The position numbers and the translations under genes were made by a program. Below are positions 1-64,000 of a DNA stretch of 64,000 nt, one piece after another. The stretch is from a cyanobacterium endosymbiont of Rhopalodia gibba. GTDB taxonomy: Bacteria; Cyanobacteriota; Cyanobacteriia; Cyanobacteriales; Microcystaceae. The stretch covers positions 2,656,001 through 2,720,000 of the forward strand of contig CP067995.1 of assembly GCA_045159875.1 (NCBI GenBank), written 5' to 3'. The stretch's first letter is position 1. Each line of letters begins with the position of its first letter. The notes beneath the pieces were generated by a model, which saw only the letters and a program-made list of their open reading frames with translations, made no database searches and was not told the DNA's origin.

Positions 1-408
1 AACCTGTAAACCAATGGTATAATCGTATTTTATGCCATCGTGAGGATCGACAATAGAAAGATTTATTTGACGACTATCAAAACTACCTGAAAAACAGTTA
101 AATTCTGATCTCGGCATATAGAATGCCCCAATGACTTCCCCTTTTTGAACTTTAAAGACTAAATATTCTTGTCCCATAGTTTCTGGTTCTGGTGATCGCC
201 CATACAGATAAACTCCGTTAGCTAAGGCACTAGTTCGCGTTAAGGAAACTTCCTCAGATGAATTCTCTTGACTATAAGATGAATTTTCTTCAGCTGCCTG
301 TACAAAATGACCACTAATTGTCCCTGAACTAATGAGCATACTCAGAGATACTATAGGTAACAATCGGAGATGTGTGAGTGAAAATAAGAATGTTGGAACA
401 AAAGACAT
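1..408 (-). CDS. Conserved cyanobacterial hypothetical protein with hydrophobic N-terminus (partial, runs off left edge)
   Basis: Own translation from ATG at 408: MSFVPTFLFSLTHLRLLPIVSLSMLISSG...NGVYLYGRSPEPETMGQEYLVFKVQKGEVIGAFYMPRSEFNCFSG..., open to position 1. Absent from ORF track because it has no stop in the window. Confidence 0.75.
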   Translation of the reverse strand, partial: MSFVPTFLFSLTHLRLLPIVSLSMLISSGTISGHFVQAAEENSSYSQENSSEEVSLTRTSALANGVYLYGRSPEPETMGQEYLVFKVQKGEVIGAFYMPRSEFNCFSGSFDSRQINLSIVDPHDGIKYDYTIGLQV

Positions 409-834
409 TTGATTTGCCTGAACATATGAACTAATATCAATTACAAGAAATGTGCTTATTTAAGCTAATATCGAGACTGGGAGGAAGTGCTCATTGGGGA
501 CAATCCTTTGTGCTATTATGTTAGATGATGTTGTTGAACTCGTTGTATCCAAACATGCTTGATTGAACCATTTTTCCTTGGAAAAACAGAACTGATAAAA
601 ACACCACATCTGCTCGGTTCAACTTGTTTTTAAAGCAATTATTTAACTGTCCCACCAAACACTGCTGGGAGCTGACGTTAATTAGCTCAAAAAAGTTTCC
701 CCACTACCATTTTCATTGTGCAGTAGTTTTCTAGAATAGGAGAACTTTTTTCTTAAGTTTTAATAAATGATCAATAAATAGAAAAAATTTTGATTAACTG
801 TAACAATTAATTTTTATCAAATAATTTTTTTTAC

Positions 835-873
835 GAAAAAAAACGATCGTTGAGAAGACGACCGTTTTTTTTC
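835..873 (-). terminator. Intrinsic terminator downstream of sigB (A/U tracts both sides)
   Basis: On the minus strand, stem ACGGTCGT/ACGATCGT (one G-U) followed by T8, about 45 nt after the sigB stop. Confidence 0.7.
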
Positions 874-1905: not shown

Positions 1906-2792
1906 TGGTACGTTATGGCTCCTTTAAATCTGCTTCAAAGTCTTTCACTATACTTTAGTGTTTTCCCAGAATTTGAGTAAATACACACGAATGCACTAGA
2001 AGAAACAACAAACGCGTAGTCGATATGACTTTTACTTTATTCCATACTAGCTTATCTGTTTAGGTGATGGCAATTATCAAAAAGTTTATCCCTAATTCAG
2101 GGAAATAGAGTGATTCAAACTACTTTGAGCAAAGATTGTAGCTATCACTTACAAAGTAAATTTTAAGTATCTATTATTTACTATAATAACGTAAAAATAA
2201 ATATGACGAAAGATTAAAGTTGATGGTGATTTCCGAACCTAACAAGAACTATATCCTTCCTTGCAAAGACTATCCTATAAAATTATTAATTGAGATAATT
2301 CACAACCAGTAACCCTTAGCTATTATTTCATATAGCTTATAAAAAGCATATTATTATTAATATAATTAATGATTATTGCTCAAATTTTTTTTAAAAAGCT
2401 TGATTGACAAGGACTTTAAGTAATTACTCGTTATCAACAGAAAATCAAGCAAAAATTAGTAAAACAAATTGATAGGATTTTACTTCGTAAACGTTCTTAG
2501 ATTTAAACGATTAACGACTAACTAAAAAACATCTCTCAGGTTAAATTTTAGAAAAATTTAAGCATTTAAAAATGTTCTATTCAATTTTTCGCTCGGCTGA
2601 TTACTTATTACCTATTTACCTCAAAAATCTTTTTTCAATTGAGGTTTAAAAAAGAAGTTAGCCCCACCTCTTGATATGTTTAAATAAAAATTGTAGCCTT
2701 AATTGTTGGTGGTTACCATCTCAGAGTTGGATAATCGTCAACTTTGTTCTGTTTTAACTTGAGATACTGAAAATAACAAAAGTGTTTTCAAA

Positions 2793-2809
2793 TCTCGTCG
2801 AACTCATGT
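2793..2809. repeat. Dispersed repeat TCTCGTCGAACTCA(T/C)GT, copy 1; probable IS terminal remnant
   Basis: 14-nt exact and 16/17 match to 17978-17994. Confidence 0.5.
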
Positions 2810-2849
2810 ACTCAATCAAATGATATGATTTAAAAAGGGTTTACCCCGT

Positions 2850-4594: not shown

Positions 4595-6046
4595 GTGACA
4601 CCCAGAGTTCGTATTGCACCAAGTCCCACTGGAAATCTACACATTGGAACTGCGAGAACAGCTATTTTTAATTGGTTATTTGCTCGTTATCACTGTGGGC
4701 AATTTATTTTACGCATTGAAGATACGGATCTTGAGCGATCACGACTAGAATATACGGAAAATATCAAATCAGGACTCACTTGGCTAGGGTTAAATTGGGA
4801 TGAGGGTCCCTTTTTGCAAACCCAACGCCTTGATCTCTATCGTCAAGGAATTCAAACCTTACTTGATAAGGGGTTTGCTTATCGTTGCTACTGTACTCCC
4901 GAGGAATTAAAACAAATGCGGGAGGAACAAAAAGTAAAAAATCAAGCTCCTCGCTATGATAACCGCCATCGTCATCTCACTGAAGCAGAATGTCAAAAGT
5001 TTGAATCCGAAGGAAGAAAACCCGTTATCCGTTTTATTATCGATGATAACCGTGAAATTGTCTGGAATGACTTAATCCGAAATCAAGTAACCTGGAGAGG
5101 AACTGATCTCGGTGGGGATATGGCAATTGCTCGTGTACCTCAACTTGAAGGAGAAGCCTTCGGACAACCTCTGTATAATTTAGCAGTGGTAGTTGATGAC
5201 TTAGACATGAAAATTACCCATGTCATTCGGGGAGAGGATCACATCGCTAATACAGCAAAACAGATTTTACTTTATGAAGCGTTAGGGGAAACAGTTCCAG
5301 ACTTTGCTCATACCCCCCTTATTTTAAATCAGGATGGACGAAAACTGTCTAAACGCGACGGAGCATCATCCATTGATGACTTCCGTAAAATGGGCTTTTT
5401 ACCCGATGCTCTCGCCAATTATATAATGCTCTTGGGTTGGACTGCCCCTGACCCCACTAAGGAAATTTTTACTCTAAGTGAAGCCGCGAAAGAATTTAGT
5501 TTAGAAAGGGTAAATAAAGCGGGGGCAAAATTTGATTGGGATAAACTAGATTGGATTAATAGTCAATATCTCCATCAAGTTCCAGCTTCGAAATTAGTTG
5601 AGCTAGCTTTTCCCTATTGGCAAGAAGCGGGTTATGAAGTTAATTTGGACAGTGATCGTCTTTGGTTAGAACAGTTAGCAGCTCTAATTAGACCGAGTTT
5701 AACTAGGTTAACTGATGTCGTAAAAGAGGGCCGTTCATTGTTTGGAAACACACTTAGTTATAGTAATGAAGCTCTAGAACAATTGCGAAAAGAGGGAGTT
5801 GAAGGAATCATACAAGCTGTGGTTGATGATTTAGCTAATTATCCTCAGTTAACCGAAGACAATGTCAGGGAGATTATCAAGCAAGTTACCAACGATTTTA
5901 AGATTAAAAAGGGTTTAGTTATGCGCTCTCTCAGAGCCGGTTTAATGGGTGAATTACACGGGCCTGATTTGATTCAATCTTGGCTTTTATTAAACCAAAA
6001 AGGATTGGATGTAATCCGTTTACAAGACAGCTTAAGTCAAATTTAG
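4595..6046 (+). CDS. gltX: Glutamate--tRNA ligase
   Basis: [16 protein letters not shown] (HIGH motif), KLSKR (KMSKS motif), RIEDTD. Confidence 0.97.
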
Positions 6047-8189: not shown

Positions 8190-9284
8190 TTAAAGAAATC
8201 TTTTTAAAACCTCTAAAGTGGAATGTCCAGTTTTTTGCCAACTGAATTGACTAGATTGTTGTAAACTCAAAGTTTTTAATTGTGATCGCAACCCATGATC
8301 ATTGATAATTTGTTCCATTGCATCCGTTATTTCTGATACCTGATAAGGATTAATTAATAATCCCGCATCCCCTGCAAGTTCAGGGAGGGAAGATAGGTTA
8401 GAAGTAATAACAGGTGTTCCACATCCCATTGCCTCTAAAACTGGAAACCCAAATCCTTCCCATAAAGAAGGAAATACCAATGCTAATGCTTGATTTAATA
8501 GAATAGGCAATTGATCGTAGGGAACGTAATCAAGAAATTTAATCTGATTTATTATTCCCAATTCAGTTGCTTGTTGTTGTAATTTTGGGGTATAACGTTT
8601 ATCTGTTTGTCCCACTAACCAAAGTTCATAATTTTGATAATTCCTGATTTCTGCAAATGCTTTAAGTAAACGGGATAAATTTTTATGGAGATCATAACGA
8701 CCTAAATAAAGGAAATAGGGTAGACTAGTTTTGGCTCTTATTTTTTTTGTTAATTTTAACGGACGAAAATGATTTGAGTTATAAGCAAGGAGAATAGGAG
8801 TTATTTTCTTAGCAGAAATCCCAAAAAAATCAATAATATCTGTCGCTGTTGCTTGAGAATTACAGAGAATATGTTTAGCTTGTTTTAAAACTTGTGGAAT
8901 ATATTTCTTGAAATAAGGTATTAGGGGGGAGTTTTTTTTAGGAAAACGTAATGGAATTAAATCATGCACCATGACGACAGATTGACAATCAGTGTACAAT
9001 GGAGCTTCAGGAACTGGTGAAAATAATAATGAACCTTCTAATTTTTTATAGATTTTTGGTAACTTAAACTGTGTCCATAATAATCGACGAAAATGACCTA
9101 CAGTTCCTTGTTCTGGAGTTAAATTTTTAGGGATTAAATAACAATTAAAGTTATGATTGTCTCTCGCTATTAATAATGTAGGATTAAGTTTTTTTAAGTA
9201 AGGAAAAATACTATCAGCATAAATAGTAATACCTGTCGGTTTAGACATCAAAAAAGAAAGATTAATCAACATTTTTTTTTCCAT
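8190..9284 (-). CDS. Glycosyltransferase family 4 (GT-B, mannosyltransferase-like)
   Basis: VHDLIP, HKNL and PSLWEGFGFPVLEAMGCGTPVITSN motifs. Confidence 0.9.
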   Translation of the reverse strand: MEKKMLINLSFLMSKPTGITIYADSIFPYLKKLNPTLLIARDNHNFNCYLIPKNLTPEQGTVGHFRRLLWTQFKLPKIYKKLEGSLLFSPVPEAPLYTDCQSVVMVHDLIPLRFPKKNSPLIPYFKKYIPQVLKQAKHILCNSQATATDIIDFFGISAKKITPILLAYNSNHFRPLKLTKKIRAKTSLPYFLYLGRYDLHKNLSRLLKAFAEIRNYQNYELWLVGQTDKRYTPKLQQQATELGIINQIKFLDYVPYDQLPILLNQALALVFPSLWEGFGFPVLEAMGCGTPVITSNLSSLPELAGDAGLLINPYQVSEITDAMEQIINDHGLRSQLKTLSLQQSSQFSWQKTGHSTLEVLKRFL

Positions 9285-18087: not shown

Positions 18088-18975
18088 ATGATTGATTCCT
18101 TAAAAGTTGGATTAGTCCAGCACAGTAACACAGAAGATTTAGATAGTAACCTCGAAAAAAGTAGTCAGGGAATTCTGCGAGCAGCTGCAAAAAATGCTAA
18201 ATTAATTATCTTGCAAGAACTCCACAGAAGCCTTTATTTCTGTCAGACAGAAGATTTTTCTTCGTTTAATTTGGCAGAAACTATCCCAGGTCATTCTACT
18301 CAAATATTAGGGCAACTAGCACAAGAATTAGGGGTAGTAATAGTCGCTTCTTTGTTTGAAAAACGAGCAACCGGTTTATATCATAATACAGCAGTTGTTT
18401 TAGACAAAGATGGTAAAATTGCAGGAAAATACCGGAAAATGCATATTCCTAATGACCCTGGTTTTTGTGAAAAATTCTATTTCACCCCTGGAGACTTAGG
18501 GTTTGAACCGATTAACACTTCTGTAGGACTCTTGGGCGTAATGGTTTGCTGGGATCAATGGTTTCCCGAGGCAGCACGGTTAATGGCCATGAAAGGAGCA
18601 CAAATACTAATCTATCCAACGGCGATAGGTTGGGACTCTAGAGATAGCCAAAATGAGCAAATTAAGCAAAAAGAAGCTTGGCTCATTGCGCAACGCGCCC
18701 ATGCTATCTCTAATGGTATTCCTGTGATCAGTTGTAACCGTGTGGGGTATGAAGCTAATACTAGTGGTAAAACTGAAGGAATTCTTTTTTGGGGTAATTC
18801 GTTTATTGCAGGTTCTCAAGGCGAGATTTTAGCACACGCAAGTGAAGATCAAGAAGAGGTAGTGACGGCTACAATTGATTTACAACATTCGGAAACTGTA
18901 CGCTGCATTTGGCCATATTTACGTGATCGCCGCATCGACCATTATCAGGATTTACTTAAAATTTATAGAGATTAA
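18088..18975 (+). CDS. aguB: N-carbamoylputrescine amidase (nitrilase superfamily)
   Basis: E-K-C triad (LQEL, YRKMHIP, VCWDQWFPE), EKFYFTPGD, RDRR; next to aguA. Confidence 0.88.
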   Translation: MIDSLKVGLVQHSNTEDLDSNLEKSSQGILRAAAKNAKLIILQELHRSLYFCQTEDFSSFNLAETIPGHSTQILGQLAQELGVVIVASLFEKRATGLYHNTAVVLDKDGKIAGKYRKMHIPNDPGFCEKFYFTPGDLGFEPINTSVGLLGVMVCWDQWFPEAARLMAMKGAQILIYPTAIGWDSRDSQNEQIKQKEAWLIAQRAHAISNGIPVISCNRVGYEANTSGKTEGILFWGNSFIAGSQGEILAHASEDQEEVVTATIDLQHSETVRCIWPYLRDRRIDHYQDLLKIYRD

Positions 18976-21784: not shown

Positions 21785-22678
21785 ATGAAACTACCTTCTC
21801 TCTTAAAATCAGGAGACTTAGTGCAAGTTATTGCTCCTAGTGGTCGGCTAAAAGAATTTTCTGCATTTGAAAAAGGACTGGAAATCTGGCGATCACGAGG
21901 CTATCAAATTCAATTGGCAAGTCACTGGAACGCCAGCGAAGGATACTTAGCTGGAACCGATACCCAACGACGACAAGCATTATTAGAAGCTTGGGAAAAC
22001 CCCCACTGTAAAGCCATTGTCTGCGCTAGGGGAGGCTATGGAAGTGCCAGATTGCTAGAAGACTGGCAATGGAAATCTGTTTCGGCTTCATCACCAAAAT
22101 GGATGATTGGTTTTTCTGATATCACGGGATTATTGTGGAGTTTAGCAAAAGAAGAGATTGCTAGTCTTCATGCCCCCGTTTTAACCACATTGGGCTCGGA
22201 ACCTCATTGGTCAGTTCAACGGTTATTTAATTACCTCGAAGGAGGACTGTTACCTCCCCTCAAAGGTTTAGGATGGGAAGGTGGACAAGCCACAGGAACC
22301 CTACTTCCGGCAAATTTGTCCGTCGCTACTCACTTACTAGGAACTCCCTTGCAACCATCTCTAGATGGGGTCATATTAGCCCTAGAAGACGTGGGAGAAG
22401 CCCCATACCGTGTAGACCGTTTTGTGACTCAATGGCGGTTAATGGGAGCATTTAAAGGGGTTAAAGGTATTGCTCTAGGACGATTTAGTCAATGTGACTT
22501 ATCGCCATCGAGCTCAAGCTGGACAGTAGATCAAGTACTACGTGATCGCCTTGGAGATCTCAACATTCCCATTGTCTCTGACCTTCCTTTCGGCCATGAT
22601 GGGGAAAATGCCGCCTTACCTGTAGGAACTCAAGTCAGTTTAGATGGAGATCTTGGCCTTCTTAGTTTCATCAACTAA
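21785..22678 (+). CDS. ldcA: LD-carboxypeptidase, peptidase S66 family
   Basis: IAPS, ARGGYGS, GFSDIT, LEDVGE and FGH (Ser-Glu-His triad). Confidence 0.88.
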   Translation: MKLPSLLKSGDLVQVIAPSGRLKEFSAFEKGLEIWRSRGYQIQLASHWNASEGYLAGTDTQRRQALLEAWENPHCKAIVCARGGYGSARLLEDWQWKSVSASSPKWMIGFSDITGLLWSLAKEEIASLHAPVLTTLGSEPHWSVQRLFNYLEGGLLPPLKGLGWEGGQATGTLLPANLSVATHLLGTPLQPSLDGVILALEDVGEAPYRVDRFVTQWRLMGAFKGVKGIALGRFSQCDLSPSSSSWTVDQVLRDRLGDLNIPIVSDLPFGHDGENAALPVGTQVSLDGDLGLLSFIN

Positions 22679-23374: not shown

Positions 23375-24376
23375 TTATAGCGTGTTAACTTCTAATTTCG
23401 TGACTTCTTTATTATTAATAGTCAAACCATAACAATCTCGCACAAGATAGAGAGGACGTTCTTTAACTTCTTCATAAACTCGACCTAAATATTCTCCAAT
23501 TACCCCTAGGCTAATTAGTTGTATTCCGCCTAAAAACAAAACAGTCACCATTAAAGATGGATAGCCAGGGACATCAACTCCTGAAACCAATGTCCAGACA
23601 ATTAAAAATAATCCATAGAAAAAAGCGAACAAAGATAACAATACTCCCACATAACTCCAAACCTTCAAAGGAACCATACTAAAAGATGTGATTCCATCAA
23701 TAGCGAAATTCCATAGTTTCCAGTAATTCCATTTAGTTTGTCCTTGGTAACGAGGGGGACGATCATAGAAAATCGCTGTTTCTTTATATCCTACCCAAGC
23801 AAATAACCCTTTCATAAAACGGGTTCGTTCAGGAATTTTTTTAACAGCCATGACCACTCGCTGATCTAAGAGTCGAAAATCTCCAGTATTTCTAGGAATA
23901 GGAACGCGACTCATTTTGCTAATCACTCGGTAAAACATATCGGCTGTAAAGCGTTTAAGCCAACTCTCTCCTTGACGTGATCGCCGTTTAGCATAAACTA
24001 CATCATACCCTTCGCGCCACTTGGCAATCAGTTCTCCAATTAATTCTGGGGGATCTTGTAAATCTCCATCGATGGGGATAACAGCTTTTCCTCGAGCATA
24101 ATCGAGACCGGCGGTTAAAGCGATTTCTTTTCCAAAATTACGGGATAATTCAATCACTTTAATTTCGGGATAACGTTGATGATAATCAATTAAATTTGTA
24201 AGGGTATTATCTCGACTTCCATCATCAATACAAATAATTTCATAGGTCAGATTTAATCGGTCTAAAACTGATAACAGGCGCTTAAAAAGCTGATCAATAT
24301 TCGGTGCTTCGTTGTACAAAGGAACAACGACCGATATTTCCATTGAATCCATCATGGGGTTTGTAGGATGACTCAT
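23375..24376 (-). CDS. GT2 polyprenyl-phosphate glycosyltransferase (GtrB-like)
   Basis: VPLYNE, DDGSRD, SRNFGKE, DGDLQDPP, GDFRLLD and two C-terminal TM helices. Confidence 0.9.
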   Translation of the reverse strand: MSHPTNPMMDSMEISVVVPLYNEAPNIDQLFKRLLSVLDRLNLTYEIICIDDGSRDNTLTNLIDYHQRYPEIKVIELSRNFGKEIALTAGLDYARGKAVIPIDGDLQDPPELIGELIAKWREGYDVVYAKRRSRQGESWLKRFTADMFYRVISKMSRVPIPRNTGDFRLLDQRVVMAVKKIPERTRFMKGLFAWVGYKETAIFYDRPPRYQGQTKWNYWKLWNFAIDGITSFSMVPLKVWSYVGVLLSLFAFFYGLFLIVWTLVSGVDVPGYPSLMVTVLFLGGIQLISLGVIGEYLGRVYEEVKERPLYLVRDCYGLTINNKEVTKLEVNTL

Positions 24377-25937: not shown

Positions 25938-26740
25938 AAAAATTTATCTCTAACAAATAACTATTGAGGTCATTTTACTGGAGTTGAGAGTTTTTAGTTA
26001 TAAGTCCTTATCAAGAATACAGAACAATTAAAAAATTTAGGAGTTATGTATTGACAGATAACCTTAGATATAGTGCTAATGAAAATACAAAGTGATCGCT
26101 AACAATAAATGGCAAAAAGAGTTAAATAAATTGCAGATTTAGTGATACTTTCAGAAAATTCAATTTGGAAAAGAGTTTTCAGATAGATTGTTCAAGAAAT
26201 AGAAAGATTGCGGCAAAAATATAAAAATTTTTGACAAGCGATTAAAAGAATAAAGAGCTTATTAATAGCCAACAATTAAATAATTTTTTAAAAATAAAAA
26301 AATACTAGAAATTTGCAAAAGAAACCGAGTATAAAAAACTAATAAAAATCCAAATATAGTTAATAAAATATTGCAAATATCAAGAGATAATTCCGGCAGT
26401 TATTTTTGATAATTACTTAATAAACATAAGGAATCTAATTAAAGTAAACTCTGAATAATTGCAAGAGAAAGAGTGATATTTATGTTTTTTGCTAGACTAG
26501 AGTCTAGAACTAAAAATCATAGAAAAAAAATAATATTGAATAAAGGCTTATAAAATTATCGTAGGTATATTGAAAGACAAATTTAATTAAGTTGAAGCCT
26601 TTAAATAAAGCTTATTTAAAGAAGTTGATATAAAAAAAACTAGAGTTATTTAACTAAAGCAATATAAAAAGATTTGCTATATTAACTTTTATTTAGATAT
26701 ATTTATAACCGATTTTTGGGTTATTTAGTAGTTTATTACT

Positions 26741-30484: not shown

Positions 30485-31682
30485 ATGCTTGATATTACCA
30501 AACTCGCTAAAAAAATACCTGAAATTAATCAACATTTTCAAAAAGAAGTAAATGCTAGTTATAGACGGTTGGAAAAAGCACAAAAAATTTTACAGAAAAT
30601 ATACGATAAAGAATCTGAATTAATTAAAAAACATGAGAAGTGGCGAGATCGCCTACTTTTTTCGGCAGCTATTCCTATCGAACCTCTAAATACCCGAATT
30701 AACCTAATCTCACCTCCCTATAGTCATAGTGTTTTTGCCACTGATGGCTCTCAAATTTCTCCTTCTCACCATGAGATCGCCTATTGTTATTTAATAAATG
30801 TGGGACGTGTGATGCTTCATTATGGACAAAATTTACATCCTTTACTTGACAGTTTACCTGAAGTTTATTATCGTCCAGAAGATATTTATATCTCCAAACA
30901 ATGGGGAATTTGAACAGAAGAATGGATAGGATATTGCCGTAGCGTTTTAGAAGCAGAAATTCTTGCCGACATGGCTTGTCGTTGGGTGAAACCCCCAGGG
31001 TCGCATCAAGAACCTAATTTAGCAATGGTGGACGGTTCGTTGATTTACTGGTTTTTAGACGGATTACCCAAAGGAGCACGAGAGAACATTCTCCCCCCCA
31101 ATCCTAACAGCTTGGGAACAGTTACAGAAATCACGAATTCCTATAGTAGGTTATTTAAGCGCATCTCATAGTCTGGAAAGTATAAACTTTTTACGGTTAC
31201 ACACTTGTCCTTTTAATACCCAAAATTGTTTTACCAATTGTGGAGACTCAGAAGAAAAGAATTTACCTTGTCAAATAATAGACCCTTTGCGGGATATAAA
31301 TCTTTGGGGACAATTTTTAAACCCTGGACAACGAGGTCCTTTATGGCGTAGTTCTCAAGAAATTCTAGAATTATATGAGGAAGCGCAACAGATTTATTTT
31401 TGTTACGTTAATCTTGGCTCAGAAATTGCCAGAGTGGAAATTCCCGCTTGGGTTGTCGAAGATAAACCTTTATTAGAACAGGCTTTAGGTATTCTGTTAG
31501 GCCAAGTCAGTAAAGGGTATGGTTATCCTATCGCTTTATCTGAGTCCCATAACCAAGCTGTTATTAGAGGAAGTGATCGCGTCAGATTCTTTGCTCTACT
31601 CGAACAACAAATGATCCGTGCTGGGTTACAGAACGTTGGAACATCTTATAAAGAAGTTAGAAAACGAGGAAGTATTGCTTAA
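30485..31682 (+). pseudogene. nurA: NurA-family nuclease, recently disrupted
   Basis: Three ORF pieces join into one protein (ATDGSQI, AMVDGSL, GYGYPIALSESHNQAV). In-frame TGA at 30911-30913 and +1 frameshift in a C7 run at 31093-31099. Confidence 0.85.
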
Positions 31683-38739: not shown

Positions 38740-40000
38740 AAGGAGTTTCTAGCAGGATATCTGCTGCCAATATTCTTCGAAGTTGAGAGAATTCTTATAC
38801 ATTTTATTAGAGAGTATTTCTCTGCAGATAGTCCACAAGACTGGCATAGACTAAAACCCATATTGTTGGCGACAATTATCTTTCCATCGCTTCCCTAACG
38901 TTAACTTCTGTAGTCACTTTTTCAGTGGCTTTCATGCCCGTTTTATGAGCTTCAATGACAACAGCGATCACTTTTCTAATTTTGTTTGACGTCTCTTAAT
39001 ATATGGGTAATATACAAAGAAATAATGGTATTTGTTAGGGTTAGATCTTTTTACCTCTTGATTATACGAAACACAACAGTTAAACTGTTGACATTGTTGT
39101 TGATAGATGGAATGTCTTGAGCAACTAAGGTAGCTACATCAGTAATGTAATGGGTTAATTCTATTAAAGGAATAGGACTGGTCGGCCATCATTTTTTAAG
39201 CCATTAATCCTTGTTTAGGGAGAGATTCTATACAAAGAGAATTTTCAAAAGGATATCGATAAACAACATTATCTTTCCATGCCAAAAATAAATAACCGTA
39301 TTTTGGGGGGACACTTTACACAATAAAGGAGGTAACTATTGGCAGAATAGAAAAAATGATTTATAAGAAAATTACATGATGGGATTTTTCTTGATTAGAG
39401 AATCACAAAACTATTGATTTATTTTATTAATTGTTGCCGTCGTTGTTTTAGAATATGGATGAAATCTTGATGATTTTTGATTCCCCACATTATTCAGTTT
39501 AGGTTTAAACGAAACTAGAATGCACAACTGTATGCCATGCCATTATCTACATAAATGAACAACCACGTAAAAGATACTTTTTCATTGAAGGTTTATAATG
39601 AGATGATTTAACAGGCATTAATTCTTCCTTACAAAAATGGATAAAAATCCCTAATCAGAACCTTTAATGTCATTTATAATAATGGCTAGTTATTGGAAGG
39701 GAAAAAATATCTGGCTTAAGTTTAAGTTAAGCAAAATAAGCTGAAAATTAACAGAACTTTAACCACTCACGATTTATTTAAACGGGCTGATAGTACTCAG
39801 CTTAAATAAAATTTAGTCAATGAATTACACTTTCACATTAAGAATATTAGTAGATGGACACAATTAGCATACTTAGACTGTATGTCTAGAGTGAGATGTG
39901 AGTGTAGTTGGGTTGTTCTGTATGTAGCGATTGCATCGGTCGACCGCTCTATCCCAGACTCTTGCGCTCTGTTTACACTGACAAGTAATTAAGTCATAGA
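38740..40000 (-). pseudogene. Decayed coding sequence(s) of unidentified function
   Basis: Protein-like minus-strand fragments (AWKDNVVYRYPFENSLCIESLPKQGLMA; SPIPLIELTHYITDVATLVAQD) broken by stops; a HIP1 variant at 38964. Confidence 0.35.
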
Positions 40001-41908: not shown

Positions 41909-44050
41909 GTGAATATGTTCTTTTTATTAGAAGTTGGAACAGAAGAATTACCCGCAGATTTTGTTGATAGTGCGATCGCCCAATGGGAACAACACATCCC
42001 CTCTAGCCTACAAGAAGAATTTCTCACTCCGGAGTCCATCACCTTTTATGGGACACCCCGTCGCTTAGCCGTCTTAATTGCAGGACTCCCTGAGCAACAA
42101 GACGAGCACACTAAAATCATCAAAGGTCCATCAGCGCAAGTAGCATTTAAGGATGGAAAACCCACTAAATCAGCAGAAGGATTTTCTCGTAAACAGAAGG
42201 TAGACATCGCTGATCTAGAAATTCGCCCGACAGAAAAGGGTAACTTTGTGTTTATTGAGAAAAAGATTAAAGGACAACCTACATCGGAGATTTTACAAGA
42301 ATTAATCCCCACCTGGATTACAAAATTAGAAGGAAGAAGGTTTATGCGGTGGGGGAATGGAGACTTACGCTTTCCCCGTCCCATTCGCTGGTTAGTGGTA
42401 CTGTGTGATGCTCAAATCCTCCCTTTGCAATTAGCTAATGCAGAAAACACCTTAATTAGTGATCGTATTTCCTATGGCCATCGTATTCTTCATCCCGATC
42501 CTGTTGCTATCTCCCACGCATCTCAGTATAGGGAAACCTTAGGAACTGTATTTGTTGAAGTGGATCGGGACTACCGTCGTAAAACCATTGAAAAAGAAGT
42601 GAACACGATGGCTAAAAAACTAAAAGGAACCTCAGATATTCCCTCTGATTTGTTAACAGAAGTAACCAACCTAGTAGAATATCCCACGGCGATCACTGGA
42701 ACATTTGATGAAGAATTTCTTGAACTTCCCACCGAGGTCATCACTACCGTGATGATGACTCATCAACGTTATTTTACGGTTAAAAATTCCCAAGGATCAC
42801 TATTATCTAACTTTATTACCATTTCCAATGGTGATCGCACAAAATCTGAGATTATCGCCACAGGAAATGCACGGGTGCTCCGGGCCCGTCTAGCAGATGC
42901 TCAATTTTTCTACCATGCAGACTGTAGTAAACCCTTCGATAGTTTCTTTCCCCAACTCGAAACCGTTATCTTTCAAGAAGAATTAGGAACTATGAAGGAC
43001 AAAGTTGAACGCATTATGACCTTATCCCAACAAATTGCCCAACAATTAGAGTTAACACAACAAAAATATAAGGAAATTGAAAGTACAGTCATGCTGTGTA
43101 AAGCGGATCTTGTTACCCAGATGGTCTATGAATTTCCTGAATTACAAGGGATTATAGGACAAAAATATGCCCTGGTTAGCGGAGAGTCGGAAGCAGTGGC
43201 CCAAGGAATTTTTGAGCATTACTTGCCCCGTGGGGCAGATGATATTATGCCACAGTCCCTAACTGGTCAAGTGGTAGGACTTGCTGATCGTTTAGACACT
43301 TTAGTGGGCATTTTGGGGCTAGGTCTAATACCTACTGGATCATCTGATCCCTTTGCTTTAAGACGTGCAGCAAATGGAGTTATTAATATTATTTGGAAAG
43401 CACAATTAGGCATTAATTTAATAAAATTATTGGACCAAGGAAGTCAAGATTTTATAGCGATTTATAGTGATAAAAAATCTCCTCTAGAAAAATTAGAATG
43501 TTTCTTTATTCAACGTCTTCAAACTCTCTTACAAGATGAATTAAAGATTGATTATGATTTAATTAATGCAGTACTAGGACAAGATGACCCTGAGTTTCGG
43601 AAACGCGCTTTACAGAATTTATTAGATCTTCGTGATCGCGCTAAATTCTTACAGAAAATCCGCAAGAATGGTCAGTTAGATGATATTTATGAAACGGTTA
43701 ATCGTTCGACTCGTCTTGCTTCTCAAGGAAACTTAGAATTTTTTGAACTTGATCCTAGAAAAGTCGTTATCCCTGAACTTTTTCAAAAAAATTCAGAAAA
43801 GTTATTCTATCAAGAATTAATAGATTTACTCCCAAAAACTTTATCTGCAAAATCTCAACGCAACTATCAATTATTGGTAGAAGGTTTAGTTGAAATTACT
43901 CCGATAGTAAATAATTTTTTTGATGGAGACAATAGTGTTTTAGTGATGGATAAAGATCCGAACATTAGAAAAAATCGCTTAAATTTATTAGGAATACTTC
44001 GAAATCACGGACGAATCCTATCAGATTTTGGAGCTATTATCAAAGGATAA
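41909..44050 (+). CDS. glyS: Glycine--tRNA ligase beta subunit
   Basis: [50 protein letters not shown]. Confidence 0.97.
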
Positions 44051-46013: not shown

Positions 46014-46430
46014 ATGACAACTTCAAAAGAAAATTTTAAAATCGTCAAATCTGCCCAAGAATGGCAGGAAATATTAAGTCCCGAACAATTTGATGTCTTG
46101 CGCAAACATGGAACTGAAATTGCTGGAACTAGCCCCCTGAATCAACAATATGGGGCAGGAATTTATGTCTGTGGTGGTTGTGGACATCCTTTATTTACCT
46201 CGGAGACCAAATACAATAGTGGCACAGGTTGGCCTAGTTTTTATGATTCTATTCAAGGGGCAATCGCCACTTTGGTCGATCAGTCTTTATTCATGACCCG
46301 CACGGAGGTCCATTGTAGTCGCTGCGGCGGTCATTTAGGCCATGTTTTTAGTGATGGTCCAGCTCCAACCGAACAACGTTACTGTATCAATGGGATATCT
46401 TTGAAGTTTTTTCCTCAAGAAGATAGTTAG
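46014..46430 (+). CDS. msrB: Peptide-methionine (R)-S-oxide reductase
   Basis: GTE, CxxC, SGTGWPSF, RTEV, HLGHVFSDGP, RYCING. Confidence 0.95.
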   Translation: MTTSKENFKIVKSAQEWQEILSPEQFDVLRKHGTEIAGTSPLNQQYGAGIYVCGGCGHPLFTSETKYNSGTGWPSFYDSIQGAIATLVDQSLFMTRTEVHCSRCGGHLGHVFSDGPAPTEQRYCINGISLKFFPQEDS

Positions 46431-48235: not shown

Positions 48236-48718
48236 TTATTTCTCTTTTACTAACAAAGCCACTGTATAAACCGAGATACCTTCTTCGCGTCCAGTTGGTC
48301 CTAGTTTTTCATTTGTTGTTGCTTTAATTCCGATTTGATCATATTCGATATCTAAAGTTTCAGCTAACTTTTCTCTCATATCTAAGATATAAGGTTTAAT
48401 TTTTGGACGTTCAGCAATAATAACTGAGTCAATATTACCAATTTGCCATTCTTGTGATCGCACCAATTTATTGACTTGTTTAAGTAATGCAAGACTATTT
48501 GCTCCTTTCCATTGAGGGTCGGAAGGAGGAAAATAATGACCAATATCCCCTAGACTTAACGCCCCTAACATAGCGTCCATAATAGCATGTGTTAAAACAT
48601 CGGCATCACTGTGTCCTAACAAACCGACAGGATGAGGAATCTCAATTCCTCCTAGAATTAAAGGACGACTTCGAACTAAACGGTGGATATCATATCCATT
48701 ACCAATGCGAACGTTCAT
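48236..48718 (-). CDS. ispF: 2-C-methyl-D-erythritol 2,4-cyclodiphosphate synthase
   Basis: [36 protein letters not shown] at 48718 preferred over the longer track start at 48751. Confidence 0.95.
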
Positions 48719-51224: not shown

Positions 51225-52181
51225 ATGAAAATTTCCACAACTTCTCCCGATCCTGTTCGTGCCTATCTAAGAGAAATCGGTCGTGTTCCTTTACTGACTC
51301 ATGAGGAAGAAATTCTTTATGCTAAGCGAGTACAGCGATTGGTTAGTCTAGAGAACATACAAGAATCTTTAACTGAAGAACTGGGACAAGAACCCACCAC
51401 AGCTCAGTGGGCGAAAACGGCTAGAATCACTCAGAAGGAACTTCGCTCAGTTATTGCGGCTGGAGAAGCAGCTAAGCGTAAAATGGTTGAGGCTAATCTT
51501 CGCTTAGTCGTATCAGTGGCTAAAAAATACCTTAAGCGCAATTTAGATCTTCTAGACTTGATTCAAGAAGGAACCATTGGGATGCAACGTGGAGTAGAGA
51601 AATTTGATCCCACTAAAGGGTATCGTTTTTCAACCTATGCTTATTGGTGGATTCGTCAAGCTATTACCCGTGCGATCGCTGAAAAAAGTCGTACCATTCG
51701 TTTACCGATTCACATCACCGAAAAACTCAATAAAATTAAGAAAGCACAACGGCAACTTGCCCAGGAAAAAGGCCGTGCCGCAACCATTCAAGAACTAGCT
51801 GAAGAACTCGAGTTAACTTCCAAACAGGTTCGGGAATACCTGGAACGTGCTCGTCAACCCCTCTCTTTAGATCTGCGGGTGGGAGATAACCAAGACACCG
51901 AATTAGGAGATTTATTAGAGGATACCGGACCTTCTCCTGAAGATTATGCAACCTATTCCTCCTTGCAGTTGGATCTCGATAAACTAATGGAAGATCTCAC
52001 ACCACAACAAAAGGAAGTATTAGCTTTAAGATTTGGCCTTGCTGATGGCAAACCTCTGACATTGGCTAAAATTGGCACTATCCTCAATATTAGTCGTGAA
52101 CGAGTTAGACAAATTGAACGAGAAGCCTTAGCAAAACTCCGAAAACTTAAGGCTAATATTAGAGAATACTTGGCTAGCTAA
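51225..52181 (+). CDS. sigD: Group 2 RNA polymerase sigma factor, SigD type
   Basis: [39 protein letters not shown] and [12 protein letters not shown] are typical of cyanobacterial SigD. Confidence 0.85.
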
Positions 52182-58563: not shown

Positions 58564-59152
58564 TGATTTAGTGGATAGTCAATGGAATTAAGTGACCAGT
58601 TATTAGCGAATGATAATTGGTCATTGTTCGTCTGTCTTAAGACAAAGCAGCCCAGTCTCTTGAAACCTCCTTAGCTAAAAGTCTTGATTAAGGCTTTCAG
58701 TCCTGTCTACTATATTTATAGTTTATAGTCCTTGATCATAGATTTAACATTGCATTGAGTTTCTCTACACTGTTCTTAGCTAGTAGCTATGATTCGGTAG
58801 AATAGAATAAATATCAATAAAAAACTGTTCTCTTTGAGAGGTTTTTATTGTCGGAGACAACAGCAATTAATTCCTAAGCTCTCAATGATAGAATCACTCA
58901 CTACATTAGCTACAGCAGACTCGCTAAGAAATGTTTCTTGAAAGTTAAAAACTTGCATTTTCGTTACAATGGCAATGCTGGAAGAACTTAAGTCGTTTTT
59001 TCCTTCCGGTTACTTGTGAACAAGAATCTGGATTGCTTGTTGAGCTATATCGATTCGGAAATAAACTCTCGAGCAAGCTGAGTTTAAGATGGCAGGATAG
59101 TCGGACAAATAGGTCAGCGATCATAAAAATTTGTTAATAGCAAAAAACTGCA

Positions 59153-59767: not shown

Positions 59768-59791
59768 AAATTATGAGTCGATGATGGTTGA

Positions 59792-59847
59792 CTTCCTAGA
59801 AACAGTTAAGACTAAGACTTAGCTTAGTCTTAACTGTTTCTAGGAAG
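59792..59847. repeat. Perfect 25-bp inverted repeat with 6-nt spacer just downstream of aat
   Basis: CTTCCTAGAAACAGTTAAGACTAAG-ACTTAG-CTTAGTCTTAACTGTTTCTAGGAAG. Confidence 0.92.
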
Positions 59848-61934
59848 AATGGGGTAAAAATCTAGTTTTATTTACTTAATTATCACAAATCAGATATTTC
59901 CTCATTTACGTGCAGTCAAGCCTTTGAATCCAAAGTTTTTTTCTGAATAAATAGAGTTAATATCTATTGATAGGTAACAGATGACCTAACAATAGATATT
60001 AATATCATAATAGATATATCCGTTAATACTTTTAGTTCAAGCCACATAGTTACCTAAAAAAATACGGGTATTTACATTACAATTTTCTATCGCTCAATCT
60101 GTTTACTTCAATCTTAAATAAAGTCCTTATTTAGGACACTTATCTTTTTTTAAAAACAATTTTATAAAAACTAATTTCTGGGACTACTTGATAAATCTTA
60201 ACTAAACTCCGTGAGTGATTAATATAATAATTGTTTTTATCAGTTATTATATTGATTGTTTAAGCTGTGCCGTTTTATTCTAATTTTTTAGTACGTAGTT
60301 TAACATAAGAACGTGGTATTGTTATTTTTTGCAGTAAGAAAAAATTACTTTAAAAGTTTTATCTATTCTCTCATTCTTTGTGAATCTAAAATCGAAATAT
60401 TGGAAAACCATGTATTTACTTATATATAACATATGTAGTCTTTAAAGGTTGTTTTAACAACATAATTGAACATAGTATTAATTATGATATTTTTATTGTT
60501 TAAAATAAGTAAATTTAAATATCATTAATTATTATGTATTATTTTAAGAAATAAATTAGCTAACATAACTAGAAAAACAAAAACTATTAAAGTTAACTTT
60601 AGATCCAAAAAATATCTGCAGAACGAAAGCAAAAATATTTTATTAAAATACAAAAAAATAGAAAGTTTAAAAACTGATCTATTGGGTAGAACTATGACAA
60701 AAATAATTTATATATAGATTTTTTGAAAAGTAGAAATAAAATAGTAGTGTAAAATTATTTATGATAATTAATAGTTATTTGAGTTTTTTTTAGAAACCCC
60801 TAAAAATTGATTTTTGGACTAATTTATAAAATTTTTAAAAGAGAATATAAAAATAAAAAAAGTAAAGATAAAAATTACTTTATTTTTTTAAAAAAAGTCA
60901 ACTAGGTAGATCATAAAATGCTATTTTATTCACTAAATAATAGTATTTTAATTTTGAAAAAATAAATTAAATAGATTTAAGAGTATAAAGTTTAGTGAAT
61001 TTTTTTGATTTAAAAATTAAAGAATAAAAGATAATTTTATTAAGTAAAAAAGTTTTTTACAGCCAATTTAGATAAAAATGCAGATAAAGTGGATAAATAC
61101 GGCAAATATAAGAAAATAGACATGAGAATTATCATCGATACTGACACAGTATATATAAGTGGTTTAATTTAAGCTAAACTGAAACAATTTTTAAAAAAAA
61201 CATAATTATTTTTTTCTAAAAAAATTAGAAAATTAAATACAATCAAAGAAAATCTACATTAGATAAAAGTTCATAAAATTATGGAAAAATATTTATCAAT
61301 AAACCCAGTTCACCTAAAAAAAACAAAAAAAACTTACTCCAAAAAGTCACTCTAAAAAGAGTAGATTGAAATAGTATAAATCTATAAAACAGCATGAGCT
61401 CAACTATAATTGCTCAAATATAGAAATATAAAATAATTTTACTTTATTTATAGGGGGCATTCGGAGCTACTTACTGAAAAAATAAAATTTGAAATGAGGA
61501 TAGATTTACTCTAAAATAGAATTACCGAAAACCTCTCTCACTTATATAACTTAGTATTAAGTATGAGTCAATAATATTCATATTAATAATTGTGCTTCTC
61601 ATGGAACTTTCTATTATTCCTCAAAATACCACTCTAGCAGTTGACAATAATAACGTGGCAAAAATATCTGGAATTTAACGTACGGGTTGTTATCCTAATG
61701 GAAATAATCTTATTAGACGAGGGATAATTTTAAAATTTAGAACTCTACAAACAAATAAATTAGACTCTGTAGAGGTGATTTTTAAATTAATTACCCACGG
61801 CAAATAATATGTCCGTATATTAATGATCACCTCAGTTACCACAAGATTAAAGCTGTTTCAACTTATGTAATTTAACAAACTAAAAACAACTGACTAAGAT
61901 AACGCTATTCTATTATCGTTAAGGAGTGATAACA

Positions 61935-64000
61935 ATGTCTGGTTCTAATACCATCCGCATCCGGGGTGCAAAACAACATAATCTAAAAAACATTGATTTA
62001 GATCTTCCTCGCGATCGCCTGATTGTTTTTACAGGGGTTTCAGGTTCGGGTAAGTCGTCTTTGGCCTTTGACACTATCTTTGCAGAGGGACAACGGCGTT
62101 ATGTGGAGTCTTTGAGCGCCTATGCGAGACAGTTTTTAGGGCAATTAGATAAGCCAGATGTAGATGCGATTAACGGGTTAAGTCCGGCTATTTCCATTGA
62201 TCAAAAGTCAACGTCCCATAACCCTCGCTCTACAGTAGGGACGGTCACAGAAATTTATGATTATCTACGGTTATTGTTTGGAAGAGCTGGAGAGCCCCAT
62301 TGTCCAGTGTGTAATCGCAGTATCGCACCACAAACCGTTGATCAAATGTGTGATCGTGTCATGGAACTTAAAGATCGCACGAAATTTCAACTTTTGTCCC
62401 CTGTGGTACGAGGAAAAAAAGGAACTCATAAAAAGTTATTGTATAGTTTAGCTTCTCAAGGATTTGTTCGAGTCCGGATTGATGGGAAAGTTCGTGAACT
62501 TTCTGATACTTTTGAATTAAAGAAAAATCACTATCATAACATTGAAATTGTCATAGATCGTCTCATAAAAAAAGAAGGAATTGAAGAACGGCTAACAGAT
62601 TCTTTAAGTACCTGTTTACATCAATCAAACGGACTAGCAATTATTGCTATTTTAGATTCAGATGATAATAATAACTGGGAGAAGGGAAAGCCTTCAGAAA
62701 TTATATTTTCTGAAAACTTTGCTTGTCCCGACCATGGGGCAGTTATCGAAGAATTATCTCCCCGTTTATTTTCTTTTAATTCTCCCTATGGTGCTTGTCC
62801 CAACTGCCATGGGTTAGGAAGTTTGCGTCAATTTTCCCCTGATTTAGTGATTCCTGACCCTTCAATTCCTTTGTATGCTGCGATCGCCCCTTGGTCAGAC
62901 AAAGATAATTCTTCCTATCTTTCTTTTTTCTATAGTGTGGGTCAAACCTACGGTTTTGATATTCAAACTCCTTGGAATAAATTAACTAAGGAGCAGCAAG
63001 AAATCCTACTTTATGGGACTAAAGAACCTATCTATTTTAAGAATGATTCTCGCGCTGACAATGATAAAGGTTGCTATCGTACTTTTAATGGTATTCTATC
63101 AATTTTAGAGCGGAATTATAAAGAAGCTAGTTCTGATATTTTTAAACAAAAATTAGAAAAATATTTGATTGATAAAACCTGTGAAGTTTGTCAAGGAAAA
63201 CGATTAAAACCTGAATCTTTATCTGTCCGGTTAGGTCAATATATGATTGATGAATTAACTAGCGTTTCTATTGATAAATGTTTAGAAAAAATTAATCAAT
63301 TGCAATTGACTCAAAGACAACAGTTAATTGGAGAACTAGCCTTAAAAGAAATCAAAAATCGTCTACAATTCCTCCTTGATGTGGGGTTAGATTATTTAAC
63401 CTTAGATCGAGGAACTAAGACCTTATCAGGGGGAGAAGCACAACGCATCCGTTTAGCCACCCAAATCGGCTCAGGATTAACAGGAGTGTTATACGTATTG
63501 GATGAACCTAGTATTGGCTTACACCAACGGGATAATGGACGTTTATTAAATACCCTCAAAAAACTACGAGATTTGGGGAATACTTTGATTGTTGTTGAAC
63601 ATGATGAAGAGACAATCCGCAGTGCAGACCATCTTGTTGATATTGGACCCCTTGCAGGAATTCATGGTGGACATATTGTCTGCCAGGGTGATTTTAAAAC
63701 ATTGATTCAAACCGATAAATCCCTAACAGCGGATTATATATCTGGGAGAAAAGTAATAAAAACTCCGGATAAACGTCGCTCTGGAAATGGAGCGTATTTA
63801 AAGCTAATTAGTTGCTGTAAAAATAATCTAAAAAATATTGACATTGAAATTCCTTTAGGTAAATTAGTTTGTATTACAGGAGTTTCAGGCTCAGGAAAAT
63901 CTACATTAGTTAATGGATTGTTATATCCCGCCCTACAACATCATTTAACTCGTCATGTTCCTTTTCCTAAAAAATTAGGTGGAATAAAGGGATTGGAGGC
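61935..64000 (+). CDS. uvrA: Excinuclease ABC subunit A (partial, runs off right edge)
   Basis: Own translation: MSGSNTIRIRGAKQHNLKNIDLDLPRDRLIVFTGVSGSGKSSLAFDTIFAEGQRRYVESLS...LSGGEAQRIRLATQIGSGLTGVLYVLDEPSIGLHQRD...second TGVSGSGKST. RBS-like AAGGAG upstream. Confidence 0.96.
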   Translation, partial: MSGSNTIRIRGAKQHNLKNIDLDLPRDRLIVFTGVSGSGKSSLAFDTIFAEGQRRYVESLSAYARQFLGQLDKPDVDAINGLSPAISIDQKSTSHNPRSTVGTVTEIYDYLRLLFGRAGEPHCPVCNRSIAPQTVDQMCDRVMELKDRTKFQLLSPVVRGKKGTHKKLLYSLASQGFVRVRIDGKVRELSDTFELKKNHYHNIEIVIDRLIKKEGIEERLTDSLSTCLHQSNGLAIIAILDSDDNNNWEKGKPSEIIFSENFACPDHGAVIEELSPRLFSFNSPYGACPNCHGLGSLRQFSPDLVIPDPSIPLYAAIAPWSDKDNSSYLSFFYSVGQTYGFDIQTPWNKLTKEQQEILLYGTKEPIYFKNDSRADNDKGCYRTFNGILSILERNYKEASSDIFKQKLEKYLIDKTCEVCQGKRLKPESLSVRLGQYMIDELTSVSIDKCLEKINQLQLTQRQQLIGELALKEIKNRLQFLLDVGLDYLTLDRGTKTLSGGEAQRIRLATQIGSGLTGVLYVLDEPSIGLHQRDNGRLLNTLKKLRDLGNTLIVVEHDEETIRSADHLVDIGPLAGIHGGHIVCQGDFKTLIQTDKSLTADYISGRKVIKTPDKRRSGNGAYLKLISCCKNNLKNIDIEIPLGKLVCITGVSGSGKSTLVNGLLYPALQHHLTRHVPFPKKLGGIKGLE

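Follow-up and report, generated by a model that had tools for sequence, protein, structure and literature searches.

Introduction

Deamination of 5-methylcytosine (m5C) creates mutational hot spots at the CCWGG sites of Escherichia coli, where very-short-patch repair acts, and in vertebrate genomes methylated CpG is lost as TpG/CpA. The present study concerns a possibly related decay of the cyanobacterial octamer HIP1 (GCGATCGC, with the core CGATCG) in a 64,000-nucleotide stretch of the genome of a cyanobacterial endosymbiont of Rhopalodia gibba (G000:C1:2656001-2720000, hereafter the window). In this stretch, HIP1 is outnumbered by a single one-mismatch variant, GTGATCGC (reverse complement GCGATCAC), which differs from HIP1 by a C-to-T exchange at position 2 or, seen from the other strand, a G-to-A exchange at position 7, and which is referred to as the C2-type variant. 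We consider it probable, at roughly 0.7, that each of these copies is what a single hit has left of an ancestral HIP1 site, as a result of a general drift towards AT together with the deamination of m5C at the methylated cytosine of the motif.

In Synechocystis, the first C of CGATCG is methylated by M.Ssp6803I, as determined by bisulfite sequencing with a detection of 100% (Hagemann et al. 2018, PMC6105098). Symbiotic cyanobacteria have been described to lose HIP1 (Elhai 2015, Life 5:921, PMC4390886). The best described case is the endosymbiont of Epithemia turgida, which represents the same lineage and the same phenomenon as reported here: its HIP1 has been termed 'weak imprecise', with 37 copies per Mb, and both a GATC methylase and a CGATCG methylase (ETSB-0711) are listed for it in Table S4 of that study. 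The supplement further gives per-position deviations of 0.23, 0.62, 0.54, 0.17, 0.12, 0.58, 0.61 and 0.21; peaks occur at positions 2/7 and 3/6 in the E. turgida endosymbiont and at positions 1/8 in Cyanothece PCC 8801. The loss of HIP1 was explained by mismatch repair being less required once photosystem II had been lost, and deamination, transitions or GTGATCGC are not mentioned in the text. Few HIP1 sites (37) have also been reported for UCYN-A (Xu et al. 2018, NAR 46:2265, PMC5861425). Our own word searches of the literature did not return a paper that ties the decay of HIP1 to m5C deamination or to spheroid bodies; where cyanobacterial HIP1 papers mention deamination, the term is used for bisulfite chemistry. 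HIP1, palindromes, deamination and mismatch repair are likewise unmentioned in two endosymbiont genome papers of 2026, as are the terms methyltransferase in one of them and methyl in the other.

Results

HIP1 and its one-mismatch neighbours in the window and the genome

The window harbors four intact HIP1 sites, starting at 41972, 51672, 62011 and 62880, and exactly 14 C2-type copies. In 100 dinucleotide-preserving shuffles of the window, HIP1 occurred at a mean of 0.09 and never reached four copies, and the C2-type word occurred at a mean of 0.32 with a maximum of two. The program count recovered the same coordinates for both words as a first-pass annotation that had been made by eye, which thus turns out to have been complete. 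The other one-mismatch classes are represented in the window by two copies (GCGATTGC/GCAATCGC, the C6-type) and four copies (GAGATCGC/GCGATCTC), and the remaining nine classes are absent.

A similar picture emerges for the whole genome, G000, which comprises 3,064,642 bp in two contigs at 33.9% GC. The 127 HIP1 sites found there are outnumbered by 359 C2-type copies, where an order-3 Markov model predicts about 20. The C6-type follows with 180 copies (33 expected) and the C8-type (GCGATCGT/ACGATCGC) with 28 copies (21 expected), and the other nine classes have 10-59 copies each, about one to three times the order-3 expectation, the largest ratios being 3.4 and 3.2 at positions 4/5. The C2-type word (358 copies versus 19.9 expected under the same model, z value of 76) ranks first among all octamers of the genome in over-representation, above HIP1. 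The twelve classes are, thus, very unequal genome-wide, which bears out the earlier suggestion that one particular variant stands out from the others. The C2-to-A variant GAGATCGC occurs in the window at 3731, 13738, 30645 and 30773, four copies where 0.5 would be expected, and shows a slight excess in the genome as a whole (42 versus about 28).

The variant is characteristic of the reduced genomes

The same words were counted in congeneric genomes, five of which are reduced, including the present one, and three of which are of free-living size. Given in the order HIP1, C2-type, C6-type, C8-type and the double-hit word GTGATCAC, the reduced genomes contain 127, 359, 180, 28 and 39 copies (G000, 3.06 Mb), 142, 418, 193, 42 and 46 copies (G001, 3.1 Mb), 103, 278, 175, 25 and 38 copies (G003, 2.8 Mb), 55, 174, 143, 22 and 32 copies (G004, 2.5 Mb) and 108, 354, 207, 48 and 48 copies (G006, 3.0 Mb). 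The corresponding numbers in the genomes of free-living size are 2,861, 223, 80, 208 and 40 (G002, 5.2 Mb), 2,055, 164, 66, 176 and 37 (G005, 4.6 Mb) and 2,995, 181, 62, 251 and 44 (G007, 4.8 Mb). Accordingly, C2-type variants and HIP1 stand at a ratio of 2.7-3.3 in each of the five reduced genomes compared to 0.06-0.08 in the three larger ones; an equal ratio in free-living relatives, which the first-pass annotation had named as a finding that would speak against it, was not observed. Among 89 genomes of the family, a ratio above 1 in combination with hundreds of copies is restricted to the five reduced genomes. In the genomes of free-living size the C2-type exceeds the C6-type about 2.5- to 3-fold, suggesting that the methylated base is more mutable there as well. 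In the 1.4- to 1.5-Mb genomes of the family the footprint is almost gone, with 13-25 copies of the one-hit word versus 6-7 of a control word.

Three genomes of another genus of the family (G014, G034 and G035, 2.8-3.8 Mb) contain 22-47 HIP1 sites and 75-124 copies of GTGATCGC. The latter amounts to about three times the control count, and the variant-to-HIP1 ratios of 1.7-5.6 rest on small counts. These genomes may represent an independent instance of HIP1 decay.

Most variant sites descend from HIP1

Alignment to the free-living-size congener G007 indicates the origin of the variants. Contig C1 contains 358 C2-type sites, 80 of which could be aligned to a sample of that genome; in 62 of the 80 (78%) the orthologous position is an intact HIP1, and in three it is the same variant. 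This agrees with the claim of the first-pass annotation that the variants derive from HIP1. C6-type sites correspond to HIP1 in G007 in 29 of 43 alignable cases, GTGATCGT-type sites in 24 of 32, and the HIP1 sites of G000 itself in 34 of 45; for three control words, HIP1 was found at 1/8, 0/1 and 1/5. Orthologs within the window are known for positions 41001-61000 and for scattered sites, and four of the five alignable C2-type sites (18923, 42831, 43632 and 48454) are HIP1 in G007. In the reverse direction, 393 of the 752 HIP1 sites in the G007 sample aligned fully to G000. HIP1 persists there at 32 of these positions, a single C2-type change is seen at 56 and a single C6-type change at 27, and multiple changes have occurred at the others. 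The ancestor of the endosymbiont lineage was HIP1-rich, like the present free-living congeners, and whatever sustains the abundance of HIP1 no longer balances mutation in this lineage. Overall, roughly 2,000-3,000 HIP1 sites have been reduced to 127, corresponding to a loss of >90% of the sites, and most of that loss reflects multiple hits per site in the course of a general drift from GC to AT. Most of the C2-type hits are old, since among the comparisons of C2-type sites between G000 and G003 just 13 of 237 have HIP1 in the other genome. At several window sites the same hit is present in three or four reduced genomes.

The methylatable cytosine decays faster than the remainder of the motif

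Every silent C or G of HIP1 is subject to erosion by a strong and general drift from GC to AT. At ordinary sites, 42-43% of the third-position C of G007 have become T in G000 and 25-36% have been kept; between G000 and G003, which were compared over 1.13 Mb aligned at 87.8% identity, neutral C-to-T changes occur at 0.16-0.19 (background about 0.17). It could be argued that this pressure, acting on a motif with a given codon placement, is sufficient and that the C2-type variant is simply the commonest silent one-step neighbor of HIP1, with no contribution of methylation. The high frequency of silent C-to-T changes is in favor of such an explanation, as is the distribution of the 14 window variants, 11 of which represent silent changes at third codon positions (one is non-silent and two are located outside long open frames). 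Similarly, the number of C6-type changes between G000 and G003 (22 versus an expectation of 24.5) is close to that under neutrality, and the excess at C2 over the neutral background of the recent branches is just about 1.4- to 1.8-fold. We nevertheless regard decay free of methylation as unlikely, because pairs of positions that are equally silent behave differently.

In the frame GC-GAT-CGC (hyphens mark codon boundaries) C2 and C8 are both silent, and in the frame G-CGA-TCG-C the same is true for G7 and G1, so that the contrast within the motif is well controlled. In G000, sites in the first frame are intact in 25 cases, changed at C2 only in 149, at C8 only in 8 and at both in 79; in the second frame, 9 are intact, 60 are changed at G7 only, 1 at G1 only and 21 at both. 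The resulting rate ratios of methylatable base to flank are 5.1 and 8.0, respectively. When the analysis is anchored to the HIP1 sites of G007, changes at only C2 versus only C8 number 68 and 20 (P = 3e-7) and those at only G7 versus only G1 number 32 and 2 (P = 7e-8), with decay exponents of 1.26 versus 0.56 (C2/C8) and 1.68 versus 0.36 (G7/G1). Even in the frame GCG-ATC-GCN (n = 156), alanine has been exchanged for valine or threonine 53 times at the methylatable bases compared to 27 times at the flanks (P = 0.005). Finally, at neutral positions of sites at which either G000 or G003 has an intact HIP1, 12 of 38 C2-type, 19 of 130 C6-type and 1 of 38 C8-type positions have changed. The C-to-T rate of the methylatable cytosine (position 2 of HIP1, or position 7 for the other strand) is about 2- to 8-fold that of the remaining C/G positions. 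A severalfold excess is in the range expected for the deamination of m5C relative to that of C when T:G repair is poor. The C-to-T (or G-to-A) change is, as had been pointed out before, located at the position methylated by M.Ssp6803I-type enzymes. The accompanying statement that erosion occurs 'specifically' at this base was not supported, as 180 C6-type sites have arisen, at an approximately neutral rate, at a cytosine other than the methylated one.

Two trivial sources of this contrast were ruled out. General CpG hypermutability does not apply, since the background of C-to-T changes between G000 and G003 is 0.16-0.19 alike at CpG and non-CpG. A codon-specific bias behind the preponderance of C2 over C8 changes was rejected as well: the backgrounds for CGC>CGT (0.148), NGC-G (0.157) and TCG>TCA (0.171) are nearly equal, and codon preference can, thus, not account for the differences within the motif.

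The flanks of intact HIP1 sites (G1/C8) exhibit a single transition between G000 and G003 where 11.6 would be expected, and at neutral positions 1 of 38 has changed compared to an expectation of 6.5 (P = 0.01). Protection of the flanks by the intact methylated hexamer was considered as a cause and is kept only as a hint: 84 of the 127 intact sites reside in the frame GCG-ATC-GCN, in which the flanks share constrained alanine codons, and the deficit is therefore mostly a survivor bias. In the standing counts such a dependence was not significant (odds ratios 1.7 and 3.2). The residual deficit could be a trace of the flank-favoring bias proposed by Elhai. Substitutions around intact CGATCG did not follow the gradient predicted for methyl-directed repair (observed/expected 0.63-0.94 over 40 bp, no trend), and conservation of GATC in general, including non-coding GATC, was not seen. 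As a separate observation, the central T5 of GTGATCGC sites (GAT to GAC, when silent) changed only twice between G000 and G003 where 13.2 changes would be expected, and A4 changed 3 times versus 7.3 expected; ordinary GAT-C codons, unlike T5 at these sites, change at the usual 0.044.

Second hits are rare, and surviving sites lie mostly in a non-silent frame

Drift alone predicts that changes at C2 and G7 are either not associated or positively associated. However, they are negatively associated, with odds ratios of 0.32 (P = 0.004) and 0.17 (P = 0.015) and a non-significant 0.49 in the third frame. In the frame GC-GAT-CGC, the non-silent G7 has changed in 19 of 47 sites at which C2 was kept versus 21 of 119 sites at which C2 was lost. 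The 39 copies of the double-hit word GTGATCAC compare with about 237 expected under independent hits, and the word is not commoner in the reduced genomes than in the free-living congeners. After the first hit, the second methylatable base changed 7 times (13.8 expected) and the far flank C8 29 times (32.1 expected). These data are supportive of, but not decisive for, the idea that the extra mutability requires the recognition site to be intact. Part of the mutual exclusion is explained by codon constraint, because the frame in which a C2 hit is silent is not the one in which a G7 hit is. In the free-living-size genomes G002, G005 and G007, GTGATCAC is itself over-represented, with 37-44 sites versus 0-7 for the reversed control word.

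The distribution of the intact sites is skewed as well. Eighty-four of the 127 belong to the frame GCG-ATC-GCN, 25 and 9 to the other two frames, and 9 are located outside long open frames; the 381 aligned coding HIP1 sites of G007 are distributed over the three frames as 156, 166 and 59. The comparison of 84/127 with 156/381 indicates that survivors are enriched where both methylatable bases are non-silent. Three of the four intact sites of the window are in this frame. By the same frame assignment, 75 sites genome-wide have exchanged alanine for valine or threonine, and these replacements would represent methylation-driven amino-acid change in the endosymbiont.

A single C5-methyltransferase is retained

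The first-pass annotation had regarded the footprint as a 'fossil' and had called for a genome search for a CGATCG methyltransferase. The search revealed one candidate C5 enzyme, which is intact. Exactly one PF00145 gene each is present in G000, G001 and G003 versus six matches each in G002 and G007. In G000, the gene is located outside the window at C1:2490713-2491831 on the minus strand, and its 432-amino-acid open reading frame matches PF00145 with 242.7 bits as well as TIGR00675. The five conserved C5-methylase motifs that were sought (FSGAGG, PPCQ, ENV, QSRKR and GNSV) are all present. The protein is 89% identical to that of the E. turgida endosymbiont and 87-89% over the E. turgida and two Rhopalodia endosymbionts; homologs with 61-74% identity extend through unicellular and heterocystous cyanobacteria, with 74% for Rippkaea orientalis PCC 8801 and 66% for UCYN-A. 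The dN/dS values of 0.20-0.23 among the reduced genomes, with the same values towards the free-living kin, indicate that the methylase is under purifying selection, and it is kept in every reduced genome searched for it. By the dS of this gene, G002 is the closest congener of free-living size (0.52 versus 1.05 for G007). Since only one C5 enzyme is left and a CGATCG methylase has been listed by Elhai for the E. turgida endosymbiont, the sole enzyme is most simply taken to be the CGATCG methylase of the DmtC/M.Ssp6803I type. The presence of an intact and constrained C5-methyltransferase gene implies that CGATCG methylation is probably current in the endosymbiont, and the notion of a fossil footprint was not borne out.

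An exodeoxyribonuclease III gene (262 amino acids) resides 14 bp upstream of the methylase gene on the same strand (L003, G000:C1:2489213-2493331). The two genes are also adjacent in G002, with 83.6% identity across both. This arrangement may tie the methylase to base-excision repair.

Repair and DNA-uptake genes

A loss of Vsr or mismatch repair, for whose genes the first-pass annotation had advised a search, did not find support. Vsr (PF03852) gave no match in G000, G001 and G003, nor in the free-living-size G002 and G007, in a search that was positive for 3 of 14 control genomes. The reduced genomes have retained intact genes for uracil-DNA glycosylase (UDG), for MutS, of which there are two copies, for MutL and for two adenine methylases of the D12 class. 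One might still assume that the loss of a T:G repair or HIP1-restoring activity, such as a Vsr analogue or the mismatch repair directed by G-m5C as suggested by Elhai, was the trigger, in place of a relaxed selection on HIP1, and unmasked an ancestral hypermutability. Along this line, the free-living congeners already hold 164-223 C2-type variants, and repair genes do get lost in the lineage, as shown by mutY, of which only pseudogenes remain in the four reduced genomes searched. A candidate activity was not found, however, with Vsr absent from all five genomes, free-living ones included, and the repair genes named above intact. MutY is, moreover, inactive on T:G mismatches. We thus consider a lost repair function quite improbable as the trigger, and the combination of AT drift with deamination at a base that is probably still methylated remains the explanation we favor. 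The stop of HIP1 maintenance is not attributable to a lost methylase, Vsr or MutS/MutL.

The mutY remnant is located within the window at 52831-53585 on the plus strand (G000:C1:2708831-2709585), where two TIGR01084 matches (83.7 and 38.1 bits) are interrupted by 11 in-frame stops. G001, G003 and G006 have stop-ridden remnants in synteny, and only G007, a genome of free-living size, has an intact gene (335.7 bits, 372-amino-acid frame). Without MutY, G:C-to-T:A transversions should contribute to the AT drift as well. A third glycosylase of the HhH-GPD family at G000:C1:666136-666534 is open in G000 (207-amino-acid frame). In G001 and G006 this gene is interrupted by stops, and G003 lacks a match. 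Repair genes are still being lost among the reduced genomes.

The gene for the DNA-uptake channel, comEC (PF03772), is intact in G007 (181.7 bits) and gave no match in G000, G001, G003 and G006. This is consistent with a loss of natural transformation, a process to which HIP1 has been linked (bioRxiv 10.1101/2024.09.10.611283; PMC13756078). Our preferred, as yet provisional, explanation for the loss of HIP1 is a relaxed selection on the motif that is possibly tied to the lost uptake of DNA.

Individual sites of the window

Among the C2-type sites of the window, that at 192..199 on the plus strand is silent with respect to a minus-strand open frame (G-CGA-TCA-C), and the reduced congener G003 has GTGATCGT at this position. 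The site at 4735..4742 on the minus strand, which reads GCGATCAC on the plus strand, is a silent third-position change where G003 has GCGATCAA; the silent plus-strand site at 8282..8289 again corresponds to GTGATCGT in G003. The copy at 18923..18930 (plus) is silent in the frame GT-GAT-CGC, and its ortholog in G007 is an intact HIP1. Further silent copies reside at 21889..21896 (minus), 22542..22549 (plus), 23977..23984 (plus) and 31573..31580 (plus), the last within an open frame of at least 120 codons. The copies at 26092..26099 (plus) and 38964..38971 (minus) are located outside open frames of this length. At 42689..42696 (minus) the word is in the frame GCG-ATC-ACN and would represent an exchange of alanine for threonine if derived from HIP1; this is the sole one of the five alignable window sites without HIP1 in G007, and the alignment is poor there.

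Three silent plus-strand copies are informative with respect to age. The variant at 42831..42838 is also present in G003 and G006 and is HIP1 in G007, indicating that the hit is older than the split of these reduced genomes. That at 43632..43639 is shared with G003, G006 and G001, again with HIP1 in G007. At 48454..48461, the word is also found in G003, an additional C6 hit has occurred in G006 and G004 (GTGATTGC), and G007 has HIP1. A C6-type copy (GCAATCGC) at 46260..46267 (plus) is silent in the frame GCA-ATC-GCN, is HIP1 in G007 and occurs as the same word in G003, G006 and G001, and the two-hit word GTGATCGT (C2 plus C8) at 42459..42466 (plus), with both changes silent, is also HIP1 in G007.

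The intact HIP1 at 41972..41979 is in the frame GCG-ATC-GCN (Ala-Ile-Ala); G007 has HIP1, and G006 and G001 have GCAATCGC. In the same frame, the site at 51672..51679 is intact in G003 and G001 and has become GCAATCGC in G006 and G004, and a further intact site is located at 62880..62887. The fourth site, at 62011..62018, is in the frame GC-GAT-CGC and reads GCGATCAC in G001. With HIP1 taken as the ancestral state, as no outgroup aligned here, the simplest interpretation is a later hit that occurred separately in the lineage of G001, and HIP1 decay appears to be still under way.

Discussion

We propose that the C2-type copies arise in the following way. The endosymbiont genome is predicted to encode an orphan CGATCG m5C methyltransferase of the DmtC/M.Ssp6803I type that would mark the first C of each hexamer. 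The m5C would deaminate to thymine, and the resulting T:G mismatch would escape uracil glycosylase. A single hit of this kind would break the recognition hexamer, and the partner cytosine would then lose its methyl group along with its extra mutability. If so, one-hit words would be expected to pile up and the double-hit GTGATCAC would not. As the hits are filtered by protein coding, they are located mainly where they are silent, i.e. in the frames GC-GAT-CGC and G-CGA-TCG-C, and intact HIP1 survives mainly in the frame GCG-ATC-GCN, where a hit would replace an alanine.

Several findings weigh against this proposal and should be kept in mind. Over the longer distance from G007 to G000, C2 of HIP1 is kept at 0.28 compared to 0.25-0.36 for ordinary third-position C, and is thus lost no faster than these on a background that is near saturation. 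Between the reduced genomes the excess of C2-type changes is modest, both over all positions (18 observed versus 12.5 expected) and at neutral positions (12 versus 6.7, P = 0.04). C6-type words are 5.5-fold over chance at a cytosine that is not known as a target of the enzyme, and in the frame GCG-ATC-GCN double hits (13 versus about 17 expected) are not rarer than under independence. In addition, the five reduced genomes share ancestry and most of the hits by descent and do not represent independent cases. The comparisons are based on partial samples: 1.2 of the 4.68 Mb of G007, in which 400-bp neighborhoods were aligned, 1.2 of the 2.79 Mb of G003 and 0.4 of the 3.02 Mb of G006. Reading frames were taken directly from open frames of at least 120 codons and not from an annotation. 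Finally, both the methylation of CGATCG in this endosymbiont and the specificity of its methylase are inferred from orthology.

A newly selected, alternate HIP in place of HIP1, which might be suggested by GTGATCGC being the top over-represented octamer of the genome and abundant in all five reduced genomes, is very improbable and largely refuted, as C/G positions 1, 3, 6 and 8 of the word evolve about neutrally between the reduced genomes (observed/expected 0.79-0.90), the word is not palindromic, 78% of its alignable copies are HIP1 in the free-living congener, and the single cytosine methylase is of the conserved HIP1-linked type with no second one beside it. Alternate HIPs in the sense of Elhai (2015) are GC-rich palindromes that have a methylase of their own and are upheld against mutation.

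It might be speculated that HIP1 is self-undermining: the methylase would turn the copies of its own target into C-to-T hot spots, the abundance of HIP1 in free-living species would require continuous selection or biased repair, and the endosymbiont would record what happens when this stops. We put this forward tentatively, as a generalization that is more doubtful than the explanation of the variant itself. If true, it would fit an endosymbiont in which the methylase stays, comEC is gone, >90% of the sites have decayed, with the highest rate at the methylated base, and coding constraint protects those that are left. Should the link to competence be real, the abundance of HIP1 would be upheld by natural transformation and recombination.

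For some thirty years there has been no settled answer to how HIP1 arises and is maintained. The reduced genomes provide a dated decay series. Its intact, one-hit and two-hit sites lend themselves to polarization against the free-living kin and show how mutable the individual HIP1 positions are relative to each other; by this measure the methylated cytosine would be the weak point of the motif. As HIP1 is not self-maintaining even though methylase, MutS and MutL are all present, the data speak against a purely repair-driven ratchet as sufficient. Moreover, a methylase that is kept under selection although most of its HIP1 targets are gone would have to serve something besides HIP1 density.

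A methylated cytosine as mutational hot spot is a textbook mechanism, and the value of the present case is that of a natural experiment on HIP1. Similar to the Dcm/Vsr system of E. coli, an m5C target would here be a C-to-T hot spot, and a neighbor of the site accumulates in the absence of repair. The two cases differ in that neither the endosymbiont nor its free-living congeners have a Vsr homolog, that the target here is a hyper-abundant octamer, and that the evidence is evolutionary only. As in the decay of vertebrate CpG, the methylated C is lost faster than other C and leaves a compositional footprint; in contrast to that process, the effect is limited to one word of 6-8 bp, and CpG in general is without excess. 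UCYN-A is, likewise, a reduced nitrogen-fixing endosymbiont of the same family and has kept a homolog of the same methylase, but in the 1.4- to 1.5-Mb genomes of its genus the footprint is no longer readable. The closest parallel remains the E. turgida endosymbiont. For this organism, Elhai's study tabulates the positional pattern in its supplement without interpreting it and does not give the replacing base, polarized changes or rates relative to a neutral background.

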